Part shown: piece by piece, positions 18,711 to 58,888 of the stretch | How the letters are laid out: each line of letters opens with the position of its first letter | How positions within the stretch are numbered: the stretch's first letter is position 1 | Sequence record: MK327936.1 | DNA from: Escherichia phage vB_EcoM_G2540 | Length of the DNA: 64,000 nt | Direction: 5' to 3' (one strand) | Made by a program: the position numbers and the translations under genes | The notes under the pieces: model-generated | Seen by the model: the letters and a program-made list of their open reading frames with translations, nothing else | What the model was told of the DNA's origin: nothing | The model's database searches: none

Positions 18711-19067
18711 TTAACCTCTATTCATAAAAGCATTAAAAATTTGGTCATCAATAGATGGAATAGCAACCTTTTCGGCATCATTTAGCAAATCATTAATTTC
18801 ATCAGATAGCATAACACATGTGCCTTTATTTCCTGTAATTGTTACTGCACAATTACGAACGTTTTCTTTATTAAATTTTAGGTTAATATTTTCGTAATGA
18901 AAATCCTTTAATGCTGAATATATTTTTAAAATAAAATTGTCTTTTACTACAATAAACCCAACCTCACTATTAAAACGTGGTTCATGGAAACTGTAATAAA
19001 CCTTTTCATCTATAAAATCGTATGAAATTTTTTCCATTTTTAAATATGAAAATTCAGAACTATACAT
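18711..19067 (-). CDS. hypothetical protein, 118 aa (61.2 position)
   Basis: ORF between gene 61 and sp. Confidence 0.45.
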   Translation of the reverse strand: MYSSEFSYLKMEKISYDFIDEKVYYSFHEPRFNSEVGFIVVKDNFILKIYSALKDFHYENINLKFNKENVRNCAVTITGNKGTCVMLSDEINDLLNDAEKVAIPSIDDQIFNAFMNRG

Positions 19068-19079
19068 ACTAACCTCTAA

Positions 19080-19373
19080 TTACTCACCTACCACTTCAGC
19101 GATGATATTTTTATTATTAAAGTTTTTATCGCAATACAGAACATAATTATACTGCATTACACCACCAGATTTAAGTTGTTTTTGCACTTCAGCTTTCATT
19201 TCAGGACGATCACGTTCAACGATATTCATAATATCCGCTTCAATTTGAATTTCAACTTCAGTCTGATCTGCAGTCATAGACCATTCGCACAAATCTTTGT
19301 CATAACCCGCCATAGCAGGCTGAGCAGCGCAAGAAGATAAAGCAAAAATTGCAGCAAAGATAAATTTTTTCAT
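19080..19373 (-). CDS. sp: Spackle-like periplasmic protein, 97 aa
   Basis: 97 aa with signal peptide (MKKFIFAAIFALSSCAAQPAMA); size and position as T4 sp (superinfection exclusion). Confidence 0.6.
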   Translation of the reverse strand: MKKFIFAAIFALSSCAAQPAMAGYDKDLCEWSMTADQTEVEIQIEADIMNIVERDRPEMKAEVQKQLKSGGVMQYNYVLYCDKNFNNKNIIAEVVGE

Positions 19374-19401
19374 GATAATCTCCTCAGTAGTTTATGTTTA
19401 T

Positions 19402-19431
19402 ATAGTATCTCAATTTCCAATAAAAGTAAAC
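19402..19431 (-). promoter_or_regulatory. T4-type early promoter
   Basis: plus gtaaac 19426-19431, 18-bp spacer, plus atagta 19402-19407. Confidence 0.45.
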
Positions 19432-19433
19432 AG

Positions 19434-19733
19434 TTATTTTAAAACTTCTGCATAATCACATGTTACAAACTGTTTCTCTAACTTGGCGATTTTACGAAAG
19501 TATCTTTTGCATTGACGAATCTGTCGCTTTGTAGGGCGCACAGCAAACTTAATAAATTCCACTCGACCAAATGGAGGGCTTTCTTCTGCCGGAATATCTA
19601 ATACTAATTCCCACGTATCTGCAATAAGTGCTTTGAATTGAGTATTTTTCCTGACATTATACGGAGTAGGTTTAAATAAAACGATATGCATATTATCCTC
19701 GGCAATCCACTTCACATACCTTCTTGTCATCAA
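19434..19733 (-). CDS. hypothetical protein, 99 aa (61.4 position)
   Basis: ORF between dmd and sp; overlaps dmd 3' end. Confidence 0.45.
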   Translation of the reverse strand: MMTRRYVKWIAEDNMHIVLFKPTPYNVRKNTQFKALIADTWELVLDIPAEESPPFGRVEFIKFAVRPTKRQIRQCKRYFRKIAKLEKQFVTCDYAEVLK

Positions 19734-19875
19734 TGAAAGATTTAACTAGTGCTTTATTAACTTCAGCATATTGAGTAGTAGCCCATTGAACGTCATCTTT
19801 CATCATTGTGATCTCTTTAGTAAACATGCTTTCGTTCTTAAACCACCCCATAAAAACTACCTTTACCAATTCCAT
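19693..19875 (-). CDS. dmd: Dmd-like antitoxin (inhibitor of RnlA/LsoA RNases), 60 aa
   Basis: 60 aa directly downstream of gene 41, as T4 dmd (61.5); N-terminus MELVKVVF... Confidence 0.55.
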   Translation of the reverse strand: MELVKVVFMGWFKNESMFTKEITMMKDDVQWATTQYAEVNKALVKSFIDDKKVCEVDCRG

Positions 19876-19903
19876 AACAATCTCCTCATTTAACCAACAA
19901 GAC

Positions 19904-19934
19904 TACTATACCATAGTCTTGTCAGCTTGTAAAC
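19904..19934 (-). promoter_or_regulatory. candidate early promoter
   Basis: plus gtaaac 19929-19934 overlapping the gene 41 stop; -10-like plus actata 19904-19909 (19-bp spacer). Confidence 0.4.
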
Positions 19935-21361
19935 TAAAATTTTAATTCATTTGCCAAAGCATCTAACTGAGCTCGAGCGGATTCGTTTCTTTGATAGCGA
20001 TTCTGTTCAGCCTGAATTTGCTGTGAACCTGCTACTTCGTTCACTTCAGTTGGAGTAGAATCTTGTTCAATTTCTACCCATTTCTGATTTCCTTTTTGAA
20101 CACCCATCAAAAACTTATTCCATTTATTCTTATCACCGTATCGTGATTTGATTTGCTTAATGAGTTGTTGTTCAGCAGCTGCTAGCTCCTCGGTTTCAAT
20201 GACCGCAAGCATAAAATCAGCTGTTGCTGGAAGACCGGCAGATTCTGCAATATCGCTCATGTTAACATCAGAAGAATCCCAAGCTTGTTTACCAACCTGT
20301 GCTGCAGTCCAAAGAACAGTTTCGGTTTCAACAGCAAGAGCACGTAATTCCTCTGCAATGGCTTTAACAGTTGTGTAACTATTTTCTGAGTAAACTCTAA
20401 TGCGGCAAGATTTACAAATACCCAGATAGTCGACAATAATGATTGTTGGAACAAAATTCTTCTTGAGCTTTAATTCGTTTAAAAGCGATCGAAATGTATT
20501 AGCATCTGCTCCACCAGTAGGATACTGTTTAACTATTAAACGACCGAGAGTAGATTTCTCGCGCCATTTTTCCATTTTTCCTTTATACTCAGCGTAAGAA
20601 ATATGCCCGTCATCAATGTCATCAAGAGAAACATCAAGCATATTAGCATCAATACGCTTAGCACAGACTTCTTCTGCCATTTCCATGGAAATGTAAAGAA
20701 CATTATGTCCGAGCTGCAAATAATCTGCTGCCAATGAACACAGACCTAATGACTTACCGACGTTAACACCAGCCATTAAAACGTTCAGTGTTCCAGTTTC
20801 AGCTCCACCTTTAGTAATTTTATTTAGAATTTTGAGTCTAAATGGAACCTTACGAGCTTTATTCATATAAGATAGCCAACGTGCTTCGTAGTCATCCATC
20901 CAATCATGACCAACGTAACTATCAAATGAAATTGATAATGCTTGGCGCATGATGTCAGGAATAGCACCTACATCTGGCATTTTCTTATTTCGTTTTTCCG
21001 GAGGAAGCTCAGCATTAGTTTGAATTTCGATTATTTTAGACGTAGCATTAAACATCGCCCTTTGCTGAACATATTTTTCTGTTTCTTTTATTAACCAACT
21101 GTGGTCTTCCGGAGAATCAGCCAGTTTTGAAATAAGTGTTTTTACACCAGAATATTCTGTTTCAGTAAATGAACTATTTTCTAATGCAACATTTAACGCA
21201 TTAATAGATGGAACGCTATGATACTCATTAACATGAGATTTAATTAATTTGAATGTATTTTTAGCTGGACCACTTTCAAAATATTCTGAATCCATATATG
21301 GCCAAACTTTTGAAAAATAAGCTTGATCAAATATGAGATGAGAAAGAATAATTTCTACCAC
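19934..21361 (-). CDS. 41: replicative DNA helicase gp41 (DnaB-like), 475 aa
   Basis: 475 aa as in T4; RecA-fold Walker A (MAGVNVGKSLGL). Confidence 0.85.
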   Translation of the reverse strand: MVEIILSHLIFDQAYFSKVWPYMDSEYFESGPAKNTFKLIKSHVNEYHSVPSINALNVALENSSFTETEYSGVKTLISKLADSPEDHSWLIKETEKYVQQRAMFNATSKIIEIQTNAELPPEKRNKKMPDVGAIPDIMRQALSISFDSYVGHDWMDDYEARWLSYMNKARKVPFRLKILNKITKGGAETGTLNVLMAGVNVGKSLGLCSLAADYLQLGHNVLYISMEMAEEVCAKRIDANMLDVSLDDIDDGHISYAEYKGKMEKWREKSTLGRLIVKQYPTGGADANTFRSLLNELKLKKNFVPTIIIVDYLGICKSCRIRVYSENSYTTVKAIAEELRALAVETETVLWTAAQVGKQAWDSSDVNMSDIAESAGLPATADFMLAVIETEELAAAEQQLIKQIKSRYGDKNKWNKFLMGVQKGNQKWVEIEQDSTPTEVNEVAGSQQIQAEQNRYQRNESARAQLDALANELKF

Positions 21362-21370
21362 ACTTACTCC

Positions 21371-21715
21371 TTAAAAGAATTTAAACTTTTTCTTTGACCT
21401 TTTATTGAATGCATCTTGCAGTTGCATTGTAATACATTTTTCTACATGAGGAGCTAACTCAGCTTTTCTTTCTTGGTCAAGAACAGCAAAGTCCATTACA
21501 ACCTTTCCATCAACCCAATCCAGTTTAGTTACATACACTATATGTGTAGAACCATCTTCTAGTTTAATGACAATCTCCTGGATAACATTTTCCATAGCGG
21601 ATTTAATTATCTTAAGAGACTCATTAAAAAGACGTTCTTTTCTTTCTTCTTCCCCCTCCGAAGAGGGGGATTCATCGATAATTTCTAGATCTAAATCTAA
21701 ATCATCTTTATTCAT
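21371..21715 (-). CDS. 40: gp40-position protein (~114 aa from second Met)
   Basis: uvsX-40-41 synteny; ATGAATAA overlap with the uvsX stop if started at MNKDDLD. Confidence 0.55.
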   Translation of the reverse strand: MNKDDLDLDLEIIDESPSSEGEEERKERLFNESLKIIKSAMENVIQEIVIKLEDGSTHIVYVTKLDWVDGKVVMDFAVLDQERKAELAPHVEKCITMQLQDAFNKRSKKKFKFF

Positions 21716-22883
21716 TAAATTCTTCCATATCACTTAACTGTTCGAGGTCAGTTTCTAAATCAGCAGCTGATTTACTTTTACTTTCTGGAGATTTAAATTT
21801 TTCAACCTTTGAGTTAATCAATTCATCAACTTCAGCTTCAACAATTTCATTACTATCAATAGCACCTAACTGATAAGCACGTTTAATAGCATCTCGGAAT
21901 GGTTGATGCTTAAATAAAGGACCCCAGAATGTAGTGCAGTTAGTATCTTTTGCACGCCAAGATTTTTCTTCGCGAATCATCTCGCCGGTTTCTTCATCAA
22001 GAAATTCACGAGCATACCAACCATTTTTAGGTTTTACCACAAATCCTAATTCTAGAGCCATATCTAACAATCCAGAATAAGGATCGATACCACCGTCAAA
22101 TTTAACATCAATAAAGAATTTACTTTTTTCTTTAACGGTACGAGATTTTTCTACATTTAGAACAAATTGATACCCCTGAAGATCAGAACCATCTTTAATC
22201 TGACGCTTACCGATAATGAATACGGTATCAGCCGAATACATTACGCCTGTACCACCTGTCATCACGGTTTTACTAAACATTTCAATGGTTTCAATTGTAT
22301 GGTTAACTGCAACACATGGAATATTTTTAATGCTAAAATAAGGAGTAACAATACGGAATAATGACTTCAGTGATTTAGCACGAGTCATATCTGCCACAGA
22401 TTTTTCATTCAAGGCATCTTCAGTTTCTTTCTTAGAAGCCATATTACCAATTGAATCGATGAATACAATAACTTTTTCACCACGCTCAATAGTTTCAAGC
22501 TGATTCACCATATCAATTTTCAGCTGTTCAACTGACTGGATTGGCGTATGAATTACTCGTTCTGGGTCAACTCCCATAGACTTAAGATAAGCCGGAGTGA
22601 TACCAAACTCTGAGTCATAGAACAAACAGATAGCATCAGGATACTTATTCAAATAAGCTGCTACCATTGTCAGTGACATATTAGATTTAAAATGTTTAGA
22701 AGGCCCTGCGAAAATAGTTAAACCAGACTGCATACCACCGTCCAACGCACCGCTAATTGCAATATTCAGCATTGGAATTTTAGTACGAACCACATCCTTT
22801 TCATTAAAGAACTTGCTTTTAGTAAGCTCTGCAGTCATTTTAGAAGTGGAAGCTTTAATCAAACGGGATTTTAAATCAGACAT
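21708..22883 (-). CDS. uvsX: UvsX recombinase (RecA-like), 391 aa
   Basis: 391 aa as in T4; RecA core with Walker A (FAGPSKHFKS). Confidence 0.85.
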   Translation of the reverse strand: MSDLKSRLIKASTSKMTAELTKSKFFNEKDVVRTKIPMLNIAISGALDGGMQSGLTIFAGPSKHFKSNMSLTMVAAYLNKYPDAICLFYDSEFGITPAYLKSMGVDPERVIHTPIQSVEQLKIDMVNQLETIERGEKVIVFIDSIGNMASKKETEDALNEKSVADMTRAKSLKSLFRIVTPYFSIKNIPCVAVNHTIETIEMFSKTVMTGGTGVMYSADTVFIIGKRQIKDGSDLQGYQFVLNVEKSRTVKEKSKFFIDVKFDGGIDPYSGLLDMALELGFVVKPKNGWYAREFLDEETGEMIREEKSWRAKDTNCTTFWGPLFKHQPFRDAIKRAYQLGAIDSNEIVEAEVDELINSKVEKFKSPESKSKSAADLETDLEQLSDMEEFNE

Positions 22884-22999
22884 TATATTTTTCCATAGGC
22901 AGCATTATATTTTACTCATGTTTATAATAAAGGGTATTGTTATACCCAGAGTTTAACTACATCATATTTAATAATGAGATAATTATATCACCTTATCAT

Positions 23000-23113
23000 T
23001 TAGCATTTACTTTTTGATTTCTTACTTTCATAAAGGTCATACAGATACAATCCAGCAAGACTAACTGCGGCAAATATTCCTAAGCCAGTAATGAATAATA
23101 AAGGTCCTAACAT
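23000..23113 (-). CDS. candidate small hydrophobic peptide, 37 aa
   Basis: hand translation MLGPLLFITGLGIFAAVSLAGLYLYDLYESKKSKSKC in the uvsX-bgt intergenic region. Confidence 0.3.
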   Translation of the reverse strand: MLGPLLFITGLGIFAAVSLAGLYLYDLYESKKSKSKC

Positions 23114-23125
23114 ATTAACCTCAAA

Positions 23126-24203
23126 TTAAGCGGTGATATCGAGAACGCGAAGAAGCTCTTCTTGCCATTCTGATTTTAAACTTTGATACTTAAATAGGGT
23201 TTGATGTTGTATTGTAATCAATTCCCGCCTCAAGCACTCATTGGTTTTTAACTCATTTACTAAAGTTTCAAAATCATTTTTATTCTTAACGTAGAATCTA
23301 GGGTCGTCAATAATAAGATGCTCGCTATCAAACTCTTCATCGATAAGCATCACAGCATCTGATGCCATGGCCTCCCAGACTCTAATTGTGATAAAATTAT
23401 CATTGTAATCTTTATCACCAATGACTATAGTTGCTATCGCTTGGCTATTCGTGTCAATAACCAAATTTGATGCTATTTTTTTGACTGAATGATGGAGCTA
23501 CATTCCACGGAAATTTAGGATTTTTAAACTGTTTCTCTTTAATAGTTCCAAACATTTTAATATTTAAATTGGTATCAAAAAGAAATTCAACTATTTTAGA
23601 CTCTCGTTGCCCACCTCTAAACGCGCCGCAGTACACAACGTCATATTTTTTAATAGTTTGATTCGCAGGTTTAAGTTTCTGTGAATGAATAAAATATCTA
23701 TCTACAGGAAAGTAATCATACTCAAATTCTTTACCGTATCTTTCGGTTGTTTTCTTATGAGCCTTTTTAGCAATTTCTAGATTTCTGCCCTGAGATATTA
23801 CTTTAAAGTCAGATGACACAAATAAGTCTTCATCTTTGTATTCACTTGAAAATTTCTTTCTGCGAACTACCGGAAGAACTTGCATAAATCCAAGACGGCC
23901 ATCAGTAAAAATATAATAAATTTTACTTCTATATTCAGCCATCAATTTATATGAATTTAAAACGATTGGATTTTTCTTTCCACCGAAGAAATTGATAGCG
24001 CCATTAATTACTATTAGTCTATCGTATGAATTTATATCAGTTACTACATCAAATGATATAGTGTATTCAGTATTTCGCATTGAAATTATATCAACGGAAT
24101 GCCCTAATTCAGTTAAAGACCTGCCTATTAAAATAGTTTCGGCTGATGATACTATTTTAAAATCACTCACAGTATTACTTAAATTTAGAATAGCTATTTT
24201 CAT
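23126..24203 (-). pseudogene. bgt: beta-glucosyltransferase-like gene split by a frameshift in an A7 run
   Basis: 249-aa N-terminal ORF plus 112-aa C-terminal ORF together resemble recalled T4 beta-gt (~60% identity); frames switch at the T7 run 23476-23482; removing one base restores FSQKIASNLVIDTNSQAIA, colinear with T4. Confidence 0.65.
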
Positions 24204-25057
24204 GATATTTCCGTAACTTCAACTTTGTGAATAGCATTAAACTTATGAAATGCTTCTGATTTTTCTTTACGCGAAACGCACATGCGAAGAACCTTTAATG
24301 GCTCGTCTTCTTCACCCAACGATTTTCGTTTTTCAATATTAGAAGTTTTCCAACGAGCTTGCTCTGGAAACTCTCTATTGATTTGCTCAAGCGCTCTATT
24401 ATGTTTAGAATTACTACGAATTGAACTACACCCGCCAGGAGCTTGTGCTTTTCCAGATACAACTAGATATTTGAACAAGGCCAAATGCGGATAACCTTGA
24501 TTAATTAAATTGAGAAATGCATACATATCTTCGCATAAATCAATTTTTCCATACCCAATTTGTTCTGTCGTAAGTTTTCCGAGGTCATACCATGTATTCG
24601 TGAATCCATATGAATTTTCACGATAATTACCCCAAGATGAAGTAATTTTAAAAATTGGTAGACGAGCATGACCGTGATAATACCCGCAATCCATGGCATC
24701 TTCAACATATTGAATCAATTCATAGAACTGTTCACGAGTCAATTGATTGACTTTATCTACGCAACGCCGATCATCTCTTTTTCGCATTGAACTCATACGA
24801 ATAGTAGTATCATCGTCAATCATCCAGATTCGTTGACCTGCATACATATCAGTAATTGCTTTACGAGTACCAGCAATTCCATTTACATCATCAGGAATAG
24901 TTATAATTTTAGCTCTAGACCCATAGGCATCATAATAAGCTTTTTCTTCGTGTTCACGTACTACAATATGTGGTTCATAATCAGTCGGAAACATATCAAG
25001 GGCAGAAACTGCCCCTACACGTTGATAGCTTGGAATTACGAATTGAATCATTTCCAC
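24200..25057 (-). CDS. putative GT-A-fold glycosyltransferase, 285 aa
   Basis: N-terminal QFVIPSYQR resembles the GT2 VIPTYN motif; DxD-like IWMIDDDTT ~80 aa in; sits between bgt and gene 42. Confidence 0.4.
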   Translation of the reverse strand: MEMIQFVIPSYQRVGAVSALDMFPTDYEPHIVVREHEEKAYYDAYGSRAKIITIPDDVNGIAGTRKAITDMYAGQRIWMIDDDTTIRMSSMRKRDDRRCVDKVNQLTREQFYELIQYVEDAMDCGYYHGHARLPIFKITSSWGNYRENSYGFTNTWYDLGKLTTEQIGYGKIDLCEDMYAFLNLINQGYPHLALFKYLVVSGKAQAPGGCSSIRSNSKHNRALEQINREFPEQARWKTSNIEKRKSLGEEDEPLKVLRMCVSRKEKSEAFHKFNAIHKVEVTEIS

Positions 25058-39024: not shown

Positions 39025-39198
39025 TCCGCATAATACGCCATACAAAGGCTCATTAGAACTTCTAAATTTTATGCGCTTATATGTTATAGTTCCTTCTGCT
39101 TTAGCTTTATCATAAGACTCTTTAAAGCGTCTCATCATTTCCTCTTTAGAGGAACGAATTTTATTATAATCTATTTCAGAAGTCTGGATGTTCATCTT

Positions 39199-58864: not shown

Positions 58865-58888
58865 AAAAAAGTCTCCCGAAGGAGACTA
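58865..58888 (-). terminator. intrinsic terminator
   Basis: agtctc-ccgaa-ggagact hairpin followed on the transcript by UUUUUUC; 3' of the 128-aa ORF. Confidence 0.6.

Follow-up and report, generated by a model that had tools for sequence, protein, structure and literature searches.

The 64,000-nucleotide (nt) stretch of Escherichia phage vB_EcoM_G2540 analysed here (sequence record MK327936.1), called the window below and numbered from its first letter, carries the genes uvsX, 40 and 41 in succession on its minus strand, and the subject of this report is a ribonucleic acid (RNA) hairpin that lies inside gene 40, shortly past the end of uvsX. The upstream cistron, uvsX, encodes the RecA-like recombinase and occupies 21708..22883, with the stop codon TAA at 21710-21708, as identified from its open reading frame (ORF) and from the annotation of T4T/T4. 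Gene 40, which encodes a head vertex assembly chaperone of 114 amino acids, is the ORF at 21371..21715 with ATG at 21715, and the downstream cistron, gene 41 for the replicative helicase, is the ORF at 19934..21361 with GTG at 21361. The start of gene 40 overlaps the end of uvsX as AUGAAUAA, and the Shine-Dalgarno-like GGAAGA in front of it is weak. The region is of the Tequatrovirus type: bases 21300-22000 match phage vB_EcoM_Shinka at 100% identity and T4 at 98.9%, and there are 502 phage records with 90% identity or above.

In the sense of the transcript, the hairpin is U-CCCCCUC-UUCG-GAGGGGG-A at 21651..21670 of the minus strand, with the 5' arm at 21670-21663, the loop at 21662-21659 and the 3' arm at 21658-21651. 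Its identification is based on its sequence, on folds, on shuffled and recoded controls, and on conservation and covariation among relatives. The whole hairpin sequence is CCCCCUCUUCGGAGGGGG, and the minus strand around it reads ...gaugaaU CCCCCUC UUCG GAGGGGG Aagaagaaagaaaag... A sequence-only reading of the window had pointed to a UUCG hairpin with a stem of 7 base pairs (bp) at 21652-21669; this core (5' arm 21669-21663, 3' arm 21658-21652) is confirmed, and one more pair, U21670-A21651, extends the stem to 8 bp. The same reading had placed the hairpin about 40 nt downstream of the uvsX stop, inside gene 40, and had read it as coding for SPSSEGEE. The stem starts 38 nt past the stop, at nt 46-47 of gene 40, and the hairpin writes S16 P17 S18 S19 E20 G21 E22 of the gene 40 product (gp40) as codons 16-22. 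The remark that the tetraloop is shared with intergenic terminators also holds, as nine UUCG hairpins occur on the minus strand and the other eight come directly after stop codons.

The stem contains six G-C pairs among its eight, like the GC-rich stem-loops of intrinsic terminators, and the loop is a C(UUCG)G tetraloop, with CUC-UUCG-GAG set on a perfect 8-bp Watson-Crick stem. In RNAfold calculations, the hairpin is found in both the minimum free energy (MFE) structure and the centroid structure in 101-nt as well as 358-nt contexts, and the local fold has an energy of −16.7 kcal/mol. Being stable and lying where the upstream cistron ends, it has the position of a 3' stabiliser, but it lies within the gene 40 frame and not between cistrons as the other T4 UUCG hairpins do. 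Right after the stem the sequence is AGAAGAAAGAAAAG, which has no U-run; the immediate tail AGAAGAAA contains no U in 8 nt and thus lacks the U-run of an intrinsic terminator. A terminator scan of 19000-24500, with a threshold of at least 5 U in the 8 nt directly 3' of a stem, did not call the site. The stem is directly followed by a purine-rich tract, AGAAGAAAGAAAAGAACGUCUUUUUAA, at 21624..21650 of the minus strand, whose first 8 nt contain no U-run, and the 45 nt upstream of the stem appear by eye to be rich in A, U and G with few C. A search with Rfam covariance models over both strands of 20800-23200 gave no match at E ≤ 1.

The frequency of such hairpins and the codons that form this one were compared with null models. 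The window has 6 perfect hairpins that combine a stem of at least 7 bp and at least 5 G-C pairs with a 4-nt loop, compared with 0.045 ± 0.21 in 200 dinucleotide shuffles, and those with a stem of at least 8 bp and at least 6 G-C pairs number 2, compared with 0.005 in the shuffles. The hairpin is more than a product of chance. Its stem is built from codons that are rare in the phage, as given by a codon usage table of 48 long ORFs of the window (TCC 4.5%, CCC 1.6%, TCG 4.6%, GAG 16.5% and GGG 6.8%), and the joint probability of these codons given the peptide is 1e-7. Among synonymous recodings weighted by codon usage, 1 in 20000 folded as well as the hairpin (−16.7), the null distribution being −7.2 ± 2.7 kcal/mol. 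The use of the rarest codons and the scarcity of recodings that fold as well indicate that selection acts on the RNA rather than on the protein, that is, it maintains the nucleotides rather than the peptide at the hairpin. In 13 lineage representatives, the MFE was also located in the lower tail of the synonymous null of each, at fractions of 0-0.078.

For the comparison across T4-like phages, gene 40 loci were drawn from IMG/VR, metagenomes and GenBank phages, where scans anchored on gp40 yielded 15-17 loci in IMG/VR and 16 in metagenomes, and an anchor on UvsX yielded 80 loci. The sequences designated L006, L008, L010, L042 and L043 come from the IMG/VR and metagenome loci. A strong hairpin is present in every gp40-anchored lineage compared, and its sequence differs from lineage to lineage. 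The T4 hairpin is UCCCCCUC-UUCG-GAGGGGGA, and that of T4T is identical to the one in the window. The Mosigvirus form is UCCCCUUC-UUCG or UUUG-GAAGGGGA, the form common to Gelderlandvirus, L008 and L010 is CCCCCUC-UCAG-GAGGGGG, a Klebsiella phage has UCUCCCUC-GGAA-GAGGGAGA, Marfavirus has AAGCUCCCCUU-GAAG-AAGGGGAGUUU and L042 has CCUCCCC-UUCG-GGGGAGG. The purine-rich arm comes first in Gaprivervirus, UGCGGAGGGAGC-UAAG-GCUCCUUCUGUA, where the reversed arm composition is accompanied by the peptide EGAKAPS in place of PS..EG. Dhakavirus has GAGGGUC-CUAGU-GACCCUC, L043 has GAGGGCC-CUAGU-GGCCCUC, L071 (IMG/VR 3300045988_154884) has GAGGGUC-CUAGU-GGCCCUC, and further unrelated stems are found in L062 and L076. 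The loops of the relatives are often not UUCG (UCAG, GGAA, GAAG, UAAG and CUAGU), and the tetraloop itself is not the conserved feature.

The differences between these stems include changes on both sides of a pair. A synonymous double change from C-G to U-A separates the Mosigvirus stem from that of T4, and C-G to U-A double changes are also found in a Klebsiella phage and in L042. The Dhakavirus-type stems form a series of U-A (Bp7), U.G (L071) and C-G (L043 and L070), in which one step, GAC to GGC, is non-synonymous and replaces Asp by Gly, which indicates that the protein yields to the pairing. L071 is a U.G wobble intermediate between the U-A and C-G forms, so that a stepwise compensatory path has been captured in nature. 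G.U pairs in the sense strand number three in the Gaprivervirus stem, one in that of Marfa and one in that of L071; as each of them would become an A.C mismatch on the opposite strand, so that pairing is confined to the sense strand, they point to messenger RNA (mRNA) and not to deoxyribonucleic acid (DNA) or antisense RNA as the molecule that folds. In the covariation alignment A6, for which 16 class-A sequences were aligned by MAFFT without fitting, 89% of the cells pair and four of the eight pairs are changed on both sides. The covariation score is 0.213, compared with 0.148 for shuffled alignments, and it was reached by none of the 500 shuffles.

The region past uvsX was also surveyed without presupposing a hairpin, using the 80 IMG/VR loci anchored on UvsX, of which 72 were non-redundant. 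The best 34-nt fold within 145 nt past the uvsX stop has a median of −14.05 kcal/mol over the 72 loci, compared with −8.26 ± 2.0 kcal/mol and a 1st percentile of −13.6 for control segments of equal size inside uvsX. A gp40 match is present in 29 of the loci and gene 40 adjoins uvsX in 28, every one of which has a hairpin with a fold energy of −12.1 kcal/mol or below. A strong hairpin just past the uvsX stop is present throughout the T4-like phages that have gene 40 downstream of uvsX. In 20 of the 28 loci, the hairpin is located inside the gene 40 frame, 32-78 nt past the uvsX stop; the match to the gp40 profile begins at positions 1-4 in most of them (8 and 14 in L062 and L076), which indicates that the N-terminal extension of gp40 is present. 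Throughout the in-frame class, the stem lies 39-61 nt past the start of gene 40. In the other eight, more distant loci, the hairpin is intergenic, 2-9 nt past the uvsX stop and often U-tailed, gene 40 starts 36-78 nt downstream, and its protein has no N-terminal extension. The same intergenic arrangement is found in Krischvirus FL20 and in Pseudotevenvirus CfP1, where a terminator is annotated at that place. In L073, the 29th locus, the hairpin is intergenic and lies 7 nt past the uvsX stop, with gene 40 about 500 nt further on. The extension, which is absent from the relatives with an intergenic hairpin, is acidic and varies in length by multiples of three. In the window, PF11113 spans only residues 44-99 of gp40, and the residues written by the hairpin fall in the extension outside this domain.

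A stem-loop in the same interval has been described in T4. In the account given by Kim et al. 2025 (PMC12152347), which names Hinton 1989 (J Biol Chem 264:14432 and 14440) as the original source, an in vivo RNA 3' end is located immediately after a stem-loop within the 358 nt upstream of T4 gene 41. Citing Hinton 1989, the account states that in rho mutants a larger amount of RNA ends at this particular site, with less 41 mRNA and protein as a result, and that GoF(D25Y) restores extension into gene 41. Kim et al. used the 358 nt as a reporter leader, and according to the sections of PMC12152347 that present their own data, GoF(D25Y) acts post-transcriptionally by lengthening the RNA half-life, the full 358-nt leader gives the largest stabilisation by GoF(D25Y), and growth on rho alleles is rescued by Rop, which is not an antiterminator. 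The counterpart of this interval in the window (−358 to −1 of gene 41) is 21719-21362 and contains both the start of gene 40 and the stop of uvsX. Because the hairpin is the only perfect one of at least 6 bp with a 4-nt loop in this interval, and is the most prominent local stem-loop in the 358-nt fold, it is very likely the published T4 stem-loop. As far as the account in PMC12152347 goes, the genes and the interval are the same, the stem-loop stands immediately upstream of the mapped 3' end and the level of 41 mRNA depends on read-through; the two probably do not differ and are most likely one element. In the window, the purine tract at 21624..21650 would contain the reported 3' end.

The hairpin element and its 3' end are therefore most likely already known in T4, and the comparative picture adds modest new detail, namely, the conservation across genera with covariation, the intergenic terminator counterparts, and an RNA stem that dictates a stretch of gp40. 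The portions of the text of PMC12152347 that concern this leader do not mention conservation across genera, covariation or a link to the N-terminal extension of gp40. A literature search found no other useful description of the site or T4 3'-end map, and a review of post-transcriptional control in T4 makes no mention of uvsX. The GenBank records of T4 (NC_000866, K03113 and T4T) carry no regulatory feature at the hairpin site.

Taken together, these results suggest that the hairpin is probably functional and works in the sense strand of the uvsX-40-41 mRNA, where it would delimit the uvsX message at its distal end as a 3'-end-forming and stabilising element. Because the T4-type hairpin has no U-tract, it would act mainly as a barrier to 3'-to-5' exonucleases, and possibly also as a weak or factor-assisted signal for pausing or termination. 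Transcripts cut or terminated downstream would be trimmed back to the stem, so that a stable uvsX mRNA would remain and the 40-41 part would disappear; in this way, a single transcription unit could express uvsX more strongly than 40 and 41. The fraction of RNA that ends at the stem-loop would set the amount of gene 41 mRNA, as the T4 findings recounted in PMC12152347 suggest. The stem would be beyond the reach of a ribosome that stops at the uvsX stop codon; ribosomes that translate gene 40 would have to melt it, so that translation of gene 40 should counteract 3'-end formation. The sequence-only reading had proposed an intragenic attenuator or processing site that tunes genes 40 and 41 relative to uvsX, and had set transcript 3' ends at the site and compensatory changes in relatives as tests. 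Compensatory changes were found, as C-G/U-A double changes, as the U-A/U.G/C-G series and as replaced hairpins, and the proposal gains support from this covariation and, provided that the two stem-loops are the same, from the T4 3' end recounted in PMC12152347.

Several points weigh against this interpretation. The identity with the stem-loop of Hinton is drawn from the interval and the fold, the 3' end itself is taken from the T4 literature, and the results obtained here do not separate an exonuclease barrier from termination. The test against synonymous recodings is weakest for stems of the Dhakavirus type (0.03-0.08). In class A, controls in which the pairing was slid by +2 and +3 match the covariation score, because the arms are runs of C and G. 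A strong hairpin is missing from some of the more distant UvsX loci that lack gene 40 as a neighbour. Within Tequatrovirus, there is no variation in the hairpin, but there is none in the next 27 nt either, and the power of this comparison is low, as the 18 distinct gene 40 sequences have about 7% variable sites.

If RNA polymerase itself terminated at the hairpin, be it by inefficient intrinsic termination or with the help of NusA or Rho, the element would be a true transcription attenuator. The relatives offer grounds for this, since a canonical hairpin with a U-tail follows uvsX in FL20 (GCCCCUUUUUC), L061, L072 and L074, a terminator is annotated at the corresponding place in CfP1, and in several in-frame versions a partly U-rich tail is retained by means of Phe or Tyr codons, for example GUUAUUAUG and AAUUUGA; the larger number of RNA ends at the site in rho mutants, as recounted in PMC12152347, can be added. 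However, the tail of the T4-type stem has no U in 8 nt and drew no call in the terminator scan, no C-rich, G-poor tract is evident by eye upstream of the stem, and the same account (PMC12152347) reports the post-transcriptional effect of GoF(D25Y) on RNA half-life and the rescue of rho alleles by Rop. Polymerase termination as the principal activity is considered unlikely. A different possibility is that the stem, about 45 nt into gene 40, is a translational roadblock that limits ribosomes arriving from the coupled uvsX/40 start, with the mRNA ends as a side effect. The placement of the stem within 39-61 nt of the gene 40 start throughout the in-frame class, the overlap of this start with the uvsX stop and the weakness of the Shine-Dalgarno-like GGAAGA would all suit such a role. 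In the eight loci of the same gene order, in FL20 and in CfP1, however, the hairpin precedes the gene 40 start and stands beside the uvsX stop, and therefore the conserved relation is to uvsX and not to the gene 40 frame. Since stems of 8 bp are also normally unwound by elongating ribosomes, a roadblock is quite improbable.

The hairpin could alternatively protect what lies downstream of it: after an endonucleolytic cleavage between uvsX and the stem, a hairpin near the new 5' end would shield the gene 41 message from 5'-end-dependent decay. A stable stem upstream of gene 41 is what this requires, and the largest stabilisation by GoF(D25Y) is indeed reported for the full 358-nt leader (PMC12152347). 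It is nevertheless very improbable, because the reported end is a 3' end downstream of the stem-loop (PMC12152347), processing of this kind would cut off the gene 40 start as well, and the hairpin of distant relatives has the form of a terminator with a U-tail. The fold could also be incidental, with selection acting on the peptide SPSSEGE or on a DNA palindrome that serves as a protein-binding site or cruciform; P17, S18, E20, G21 and E22 are invariant among the closer relatives, and the DNA is a perfect palindrome. Against this stand the use of the rarest codons available, the extreme position of the fold among synonymous recodings, the location of the segment outside the conserved Pfam domain, the compensatory change that alters an amino acid, and the retention of the hairpin in other genera with the different peptides EGAKAPS, EEGPSDPR, AGETQP and EAPKGAS. 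The sense-strand-only G.U pairs and the non-conserved loop sequences likewise argue against it, and an incidental fold can hardly be credited.

Other candidate roles for the site were tried and rejected. For a RegB endoribonuclease site, the GGAG (UUCG-GAGG) is paired within the stem, and it is GGAA in Mosigvirus and absent from other classes. For an RNase III processing site, the stem has 8 bp compared with the approximately 20 bp of double-stranded RNA that are needed. For a terminator of the plus strand, the tail would be UUCAUCGA, and the wobble pairs exist in the sense strand only.

Returning to the interpretation of the hairpin as a 3'-end-forming and stabilising element, the simplest reading of the intergenic and in-frame loci, as judged from their sequences, would be that gene 40 gained an N-terminal extension starting before the uvsX stop and thereby took in what had been an ordinary intergenic terminator of uvsX. 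Since then the element would have been maintained under constraints from coding as well as from structure, and the U-tail would have been lost in the T4-type versions. More tentatively, it is conceivable that the gp40 extension of Tevenvirinae overprinted an old uvsX terminator, that the stem dictates the protein, and that the result is a translation-gated attenuator. The stem would dictate the peptide as PS..EG where the pyrimidine-rich arm comes first and as EG..PS where the purine-rich arm comes first. As for the gate, efficient coupling from uvsX to gene 40 would preserve the 40-41 message, and with poor coupling the stem would fold and the message would end at uvsX.

The hairpin can be compared with three kinds of known element. 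The extra-stable C(UUCG)G tetraloop hairpins of T4 mRNA were reportedly described by Tuerk et al. in 1988. The present hairpin resembles them in its UUCG loop closed by C-G on a GC-rich stem, and differs from the other eight in the window in that those are non-coding whereas it is read as codons; the T4 origin of the motif has been described (PMC4371310). It shares gene order, place and stem strength with the intrinsic terminators found after uvsX in FL20, CfP1, L061, L072 and L074, several of which have UUCG loops, but those are intergenic, 2-9 nt past the stop and often U-tailed, whereas the stem in the window is 38 nt past the stop, in gene 40 and without a U-tail. Intercistronic stem-loops, such as the repetitive extragenic palindromic (REP) elements in malE-malF, stabilise the upstream part of a polycistronic mRNA. 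The likeness to this type consists in a stable stem-loop without a U-tract that separates an upstream cistron of high expression from downstream cistrons of lower expression, with 3' ends at the stem; REP-type elements, however, are non-coding, whereas the gene 40 hairpin is translated, so ribosomes could oppose its action.

Under the proposed mechanism, the hairpin would account for the production of much UvsX but less gp40 and gp41 helicase from one transcription unit. If it is the stem-loop of Hinton, the rho(nusD)/goF phenotype of T4, long known and still being studied, would also have its physical site here. Selection on the element extends over many genera, so that it is not an oddity of T4, and it provides a clean example of RNA structure that constrains, and even writes, a protein sequence. 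Recoding of gene 40 in genome engineering should be expected to disturb the expression of uvsX and 41, and annotation pipelines that seek terminators only between genes miss this class of hairpin.

The nine perfect UUCG-loop hairpins of the window are all on the minus strand, and the plus strand has no perfect hairpin with a TTCG loop. Besides the one in gene 40, they are located at 58887-58870, 55307-55288, 41392-41377, 39025-39006, 37755-37736, 29782-29765, 14977-14956 and 4334-4317, all eight in non-coding gaps. Since these eight directly follow stop codons, this type of hairpin marks gene ends in this genome, and the uvsX hairpin comes to lie in the next gene only because the start of gene 40 precedes the end of uvsX. 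Two more hairpins of the minus strand have UCCG loops, of which that at 26997-26980 directly follows a stop codon and that at 29859-29842 lies near the end of a putative 122-aa open frame. About half of the family has U-tails (those starting at 58887, 55307, 26997 and 14977, and partly 41392); the members at 39025, 37755, 29782 and 4334 have none and may be stabilisers rather than terminators.

Two features next to the hairpin concern variation within Tequatrovirus. The segment 21624-21672 of the minus strand (gene 40 nt 43-92) contains no variable site in the 18 distinct sequences, and sites vary on both sides of it. The purine tract AGAAGAAAGAAAAGAACGUCUUUUUAA may be part of the element, for example, as the place of the 3' end or as a protein-binding site. 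Just upstream of the hairpin, at 21706-21683 of the minus strand (gene 40 codons 4-11), a GATTTA (Asp-Leu) repeat varies in copy number among Tequatrovirus members, and all the changes are in frame: a 6-nt deletion in L005, SP1 and HY01, and a 6-nt insertion in G4498.

A promoter for gene 41 inside gene 40 was considered and rejected, as no strict match to the middle-promoter pattern TGCTTNA-N10-14-TANNNT (MotA box and minus 10) was found between uvsX and gene 41, which fits a dependence of gene 41 on read-through past the stem. Over both strands of the whole window, this pattern occurs 21 times, compared with 8.4 ± 3.1 in shuffles, which fits the many middle promoters of T4. On the other side of uvsX, a terminator-like hairpin, GGGUAUAACAAUACCC, followed by UUUAUUAUAA, is present at 22947-22932 of the minus strand, about 50 nt upstream of the uvsX start. 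In T4 and T4T, the homing endonuclease gene segA lies directly upstream of uvsX; in the window, the corresponding slot at 22884-24203 of the minus strand instead holds ORFs of 112 aa (23464..23126) and 249 aa (24203..23454), so that the mobile-element slot upstream of uvsX differs between the window and T4.

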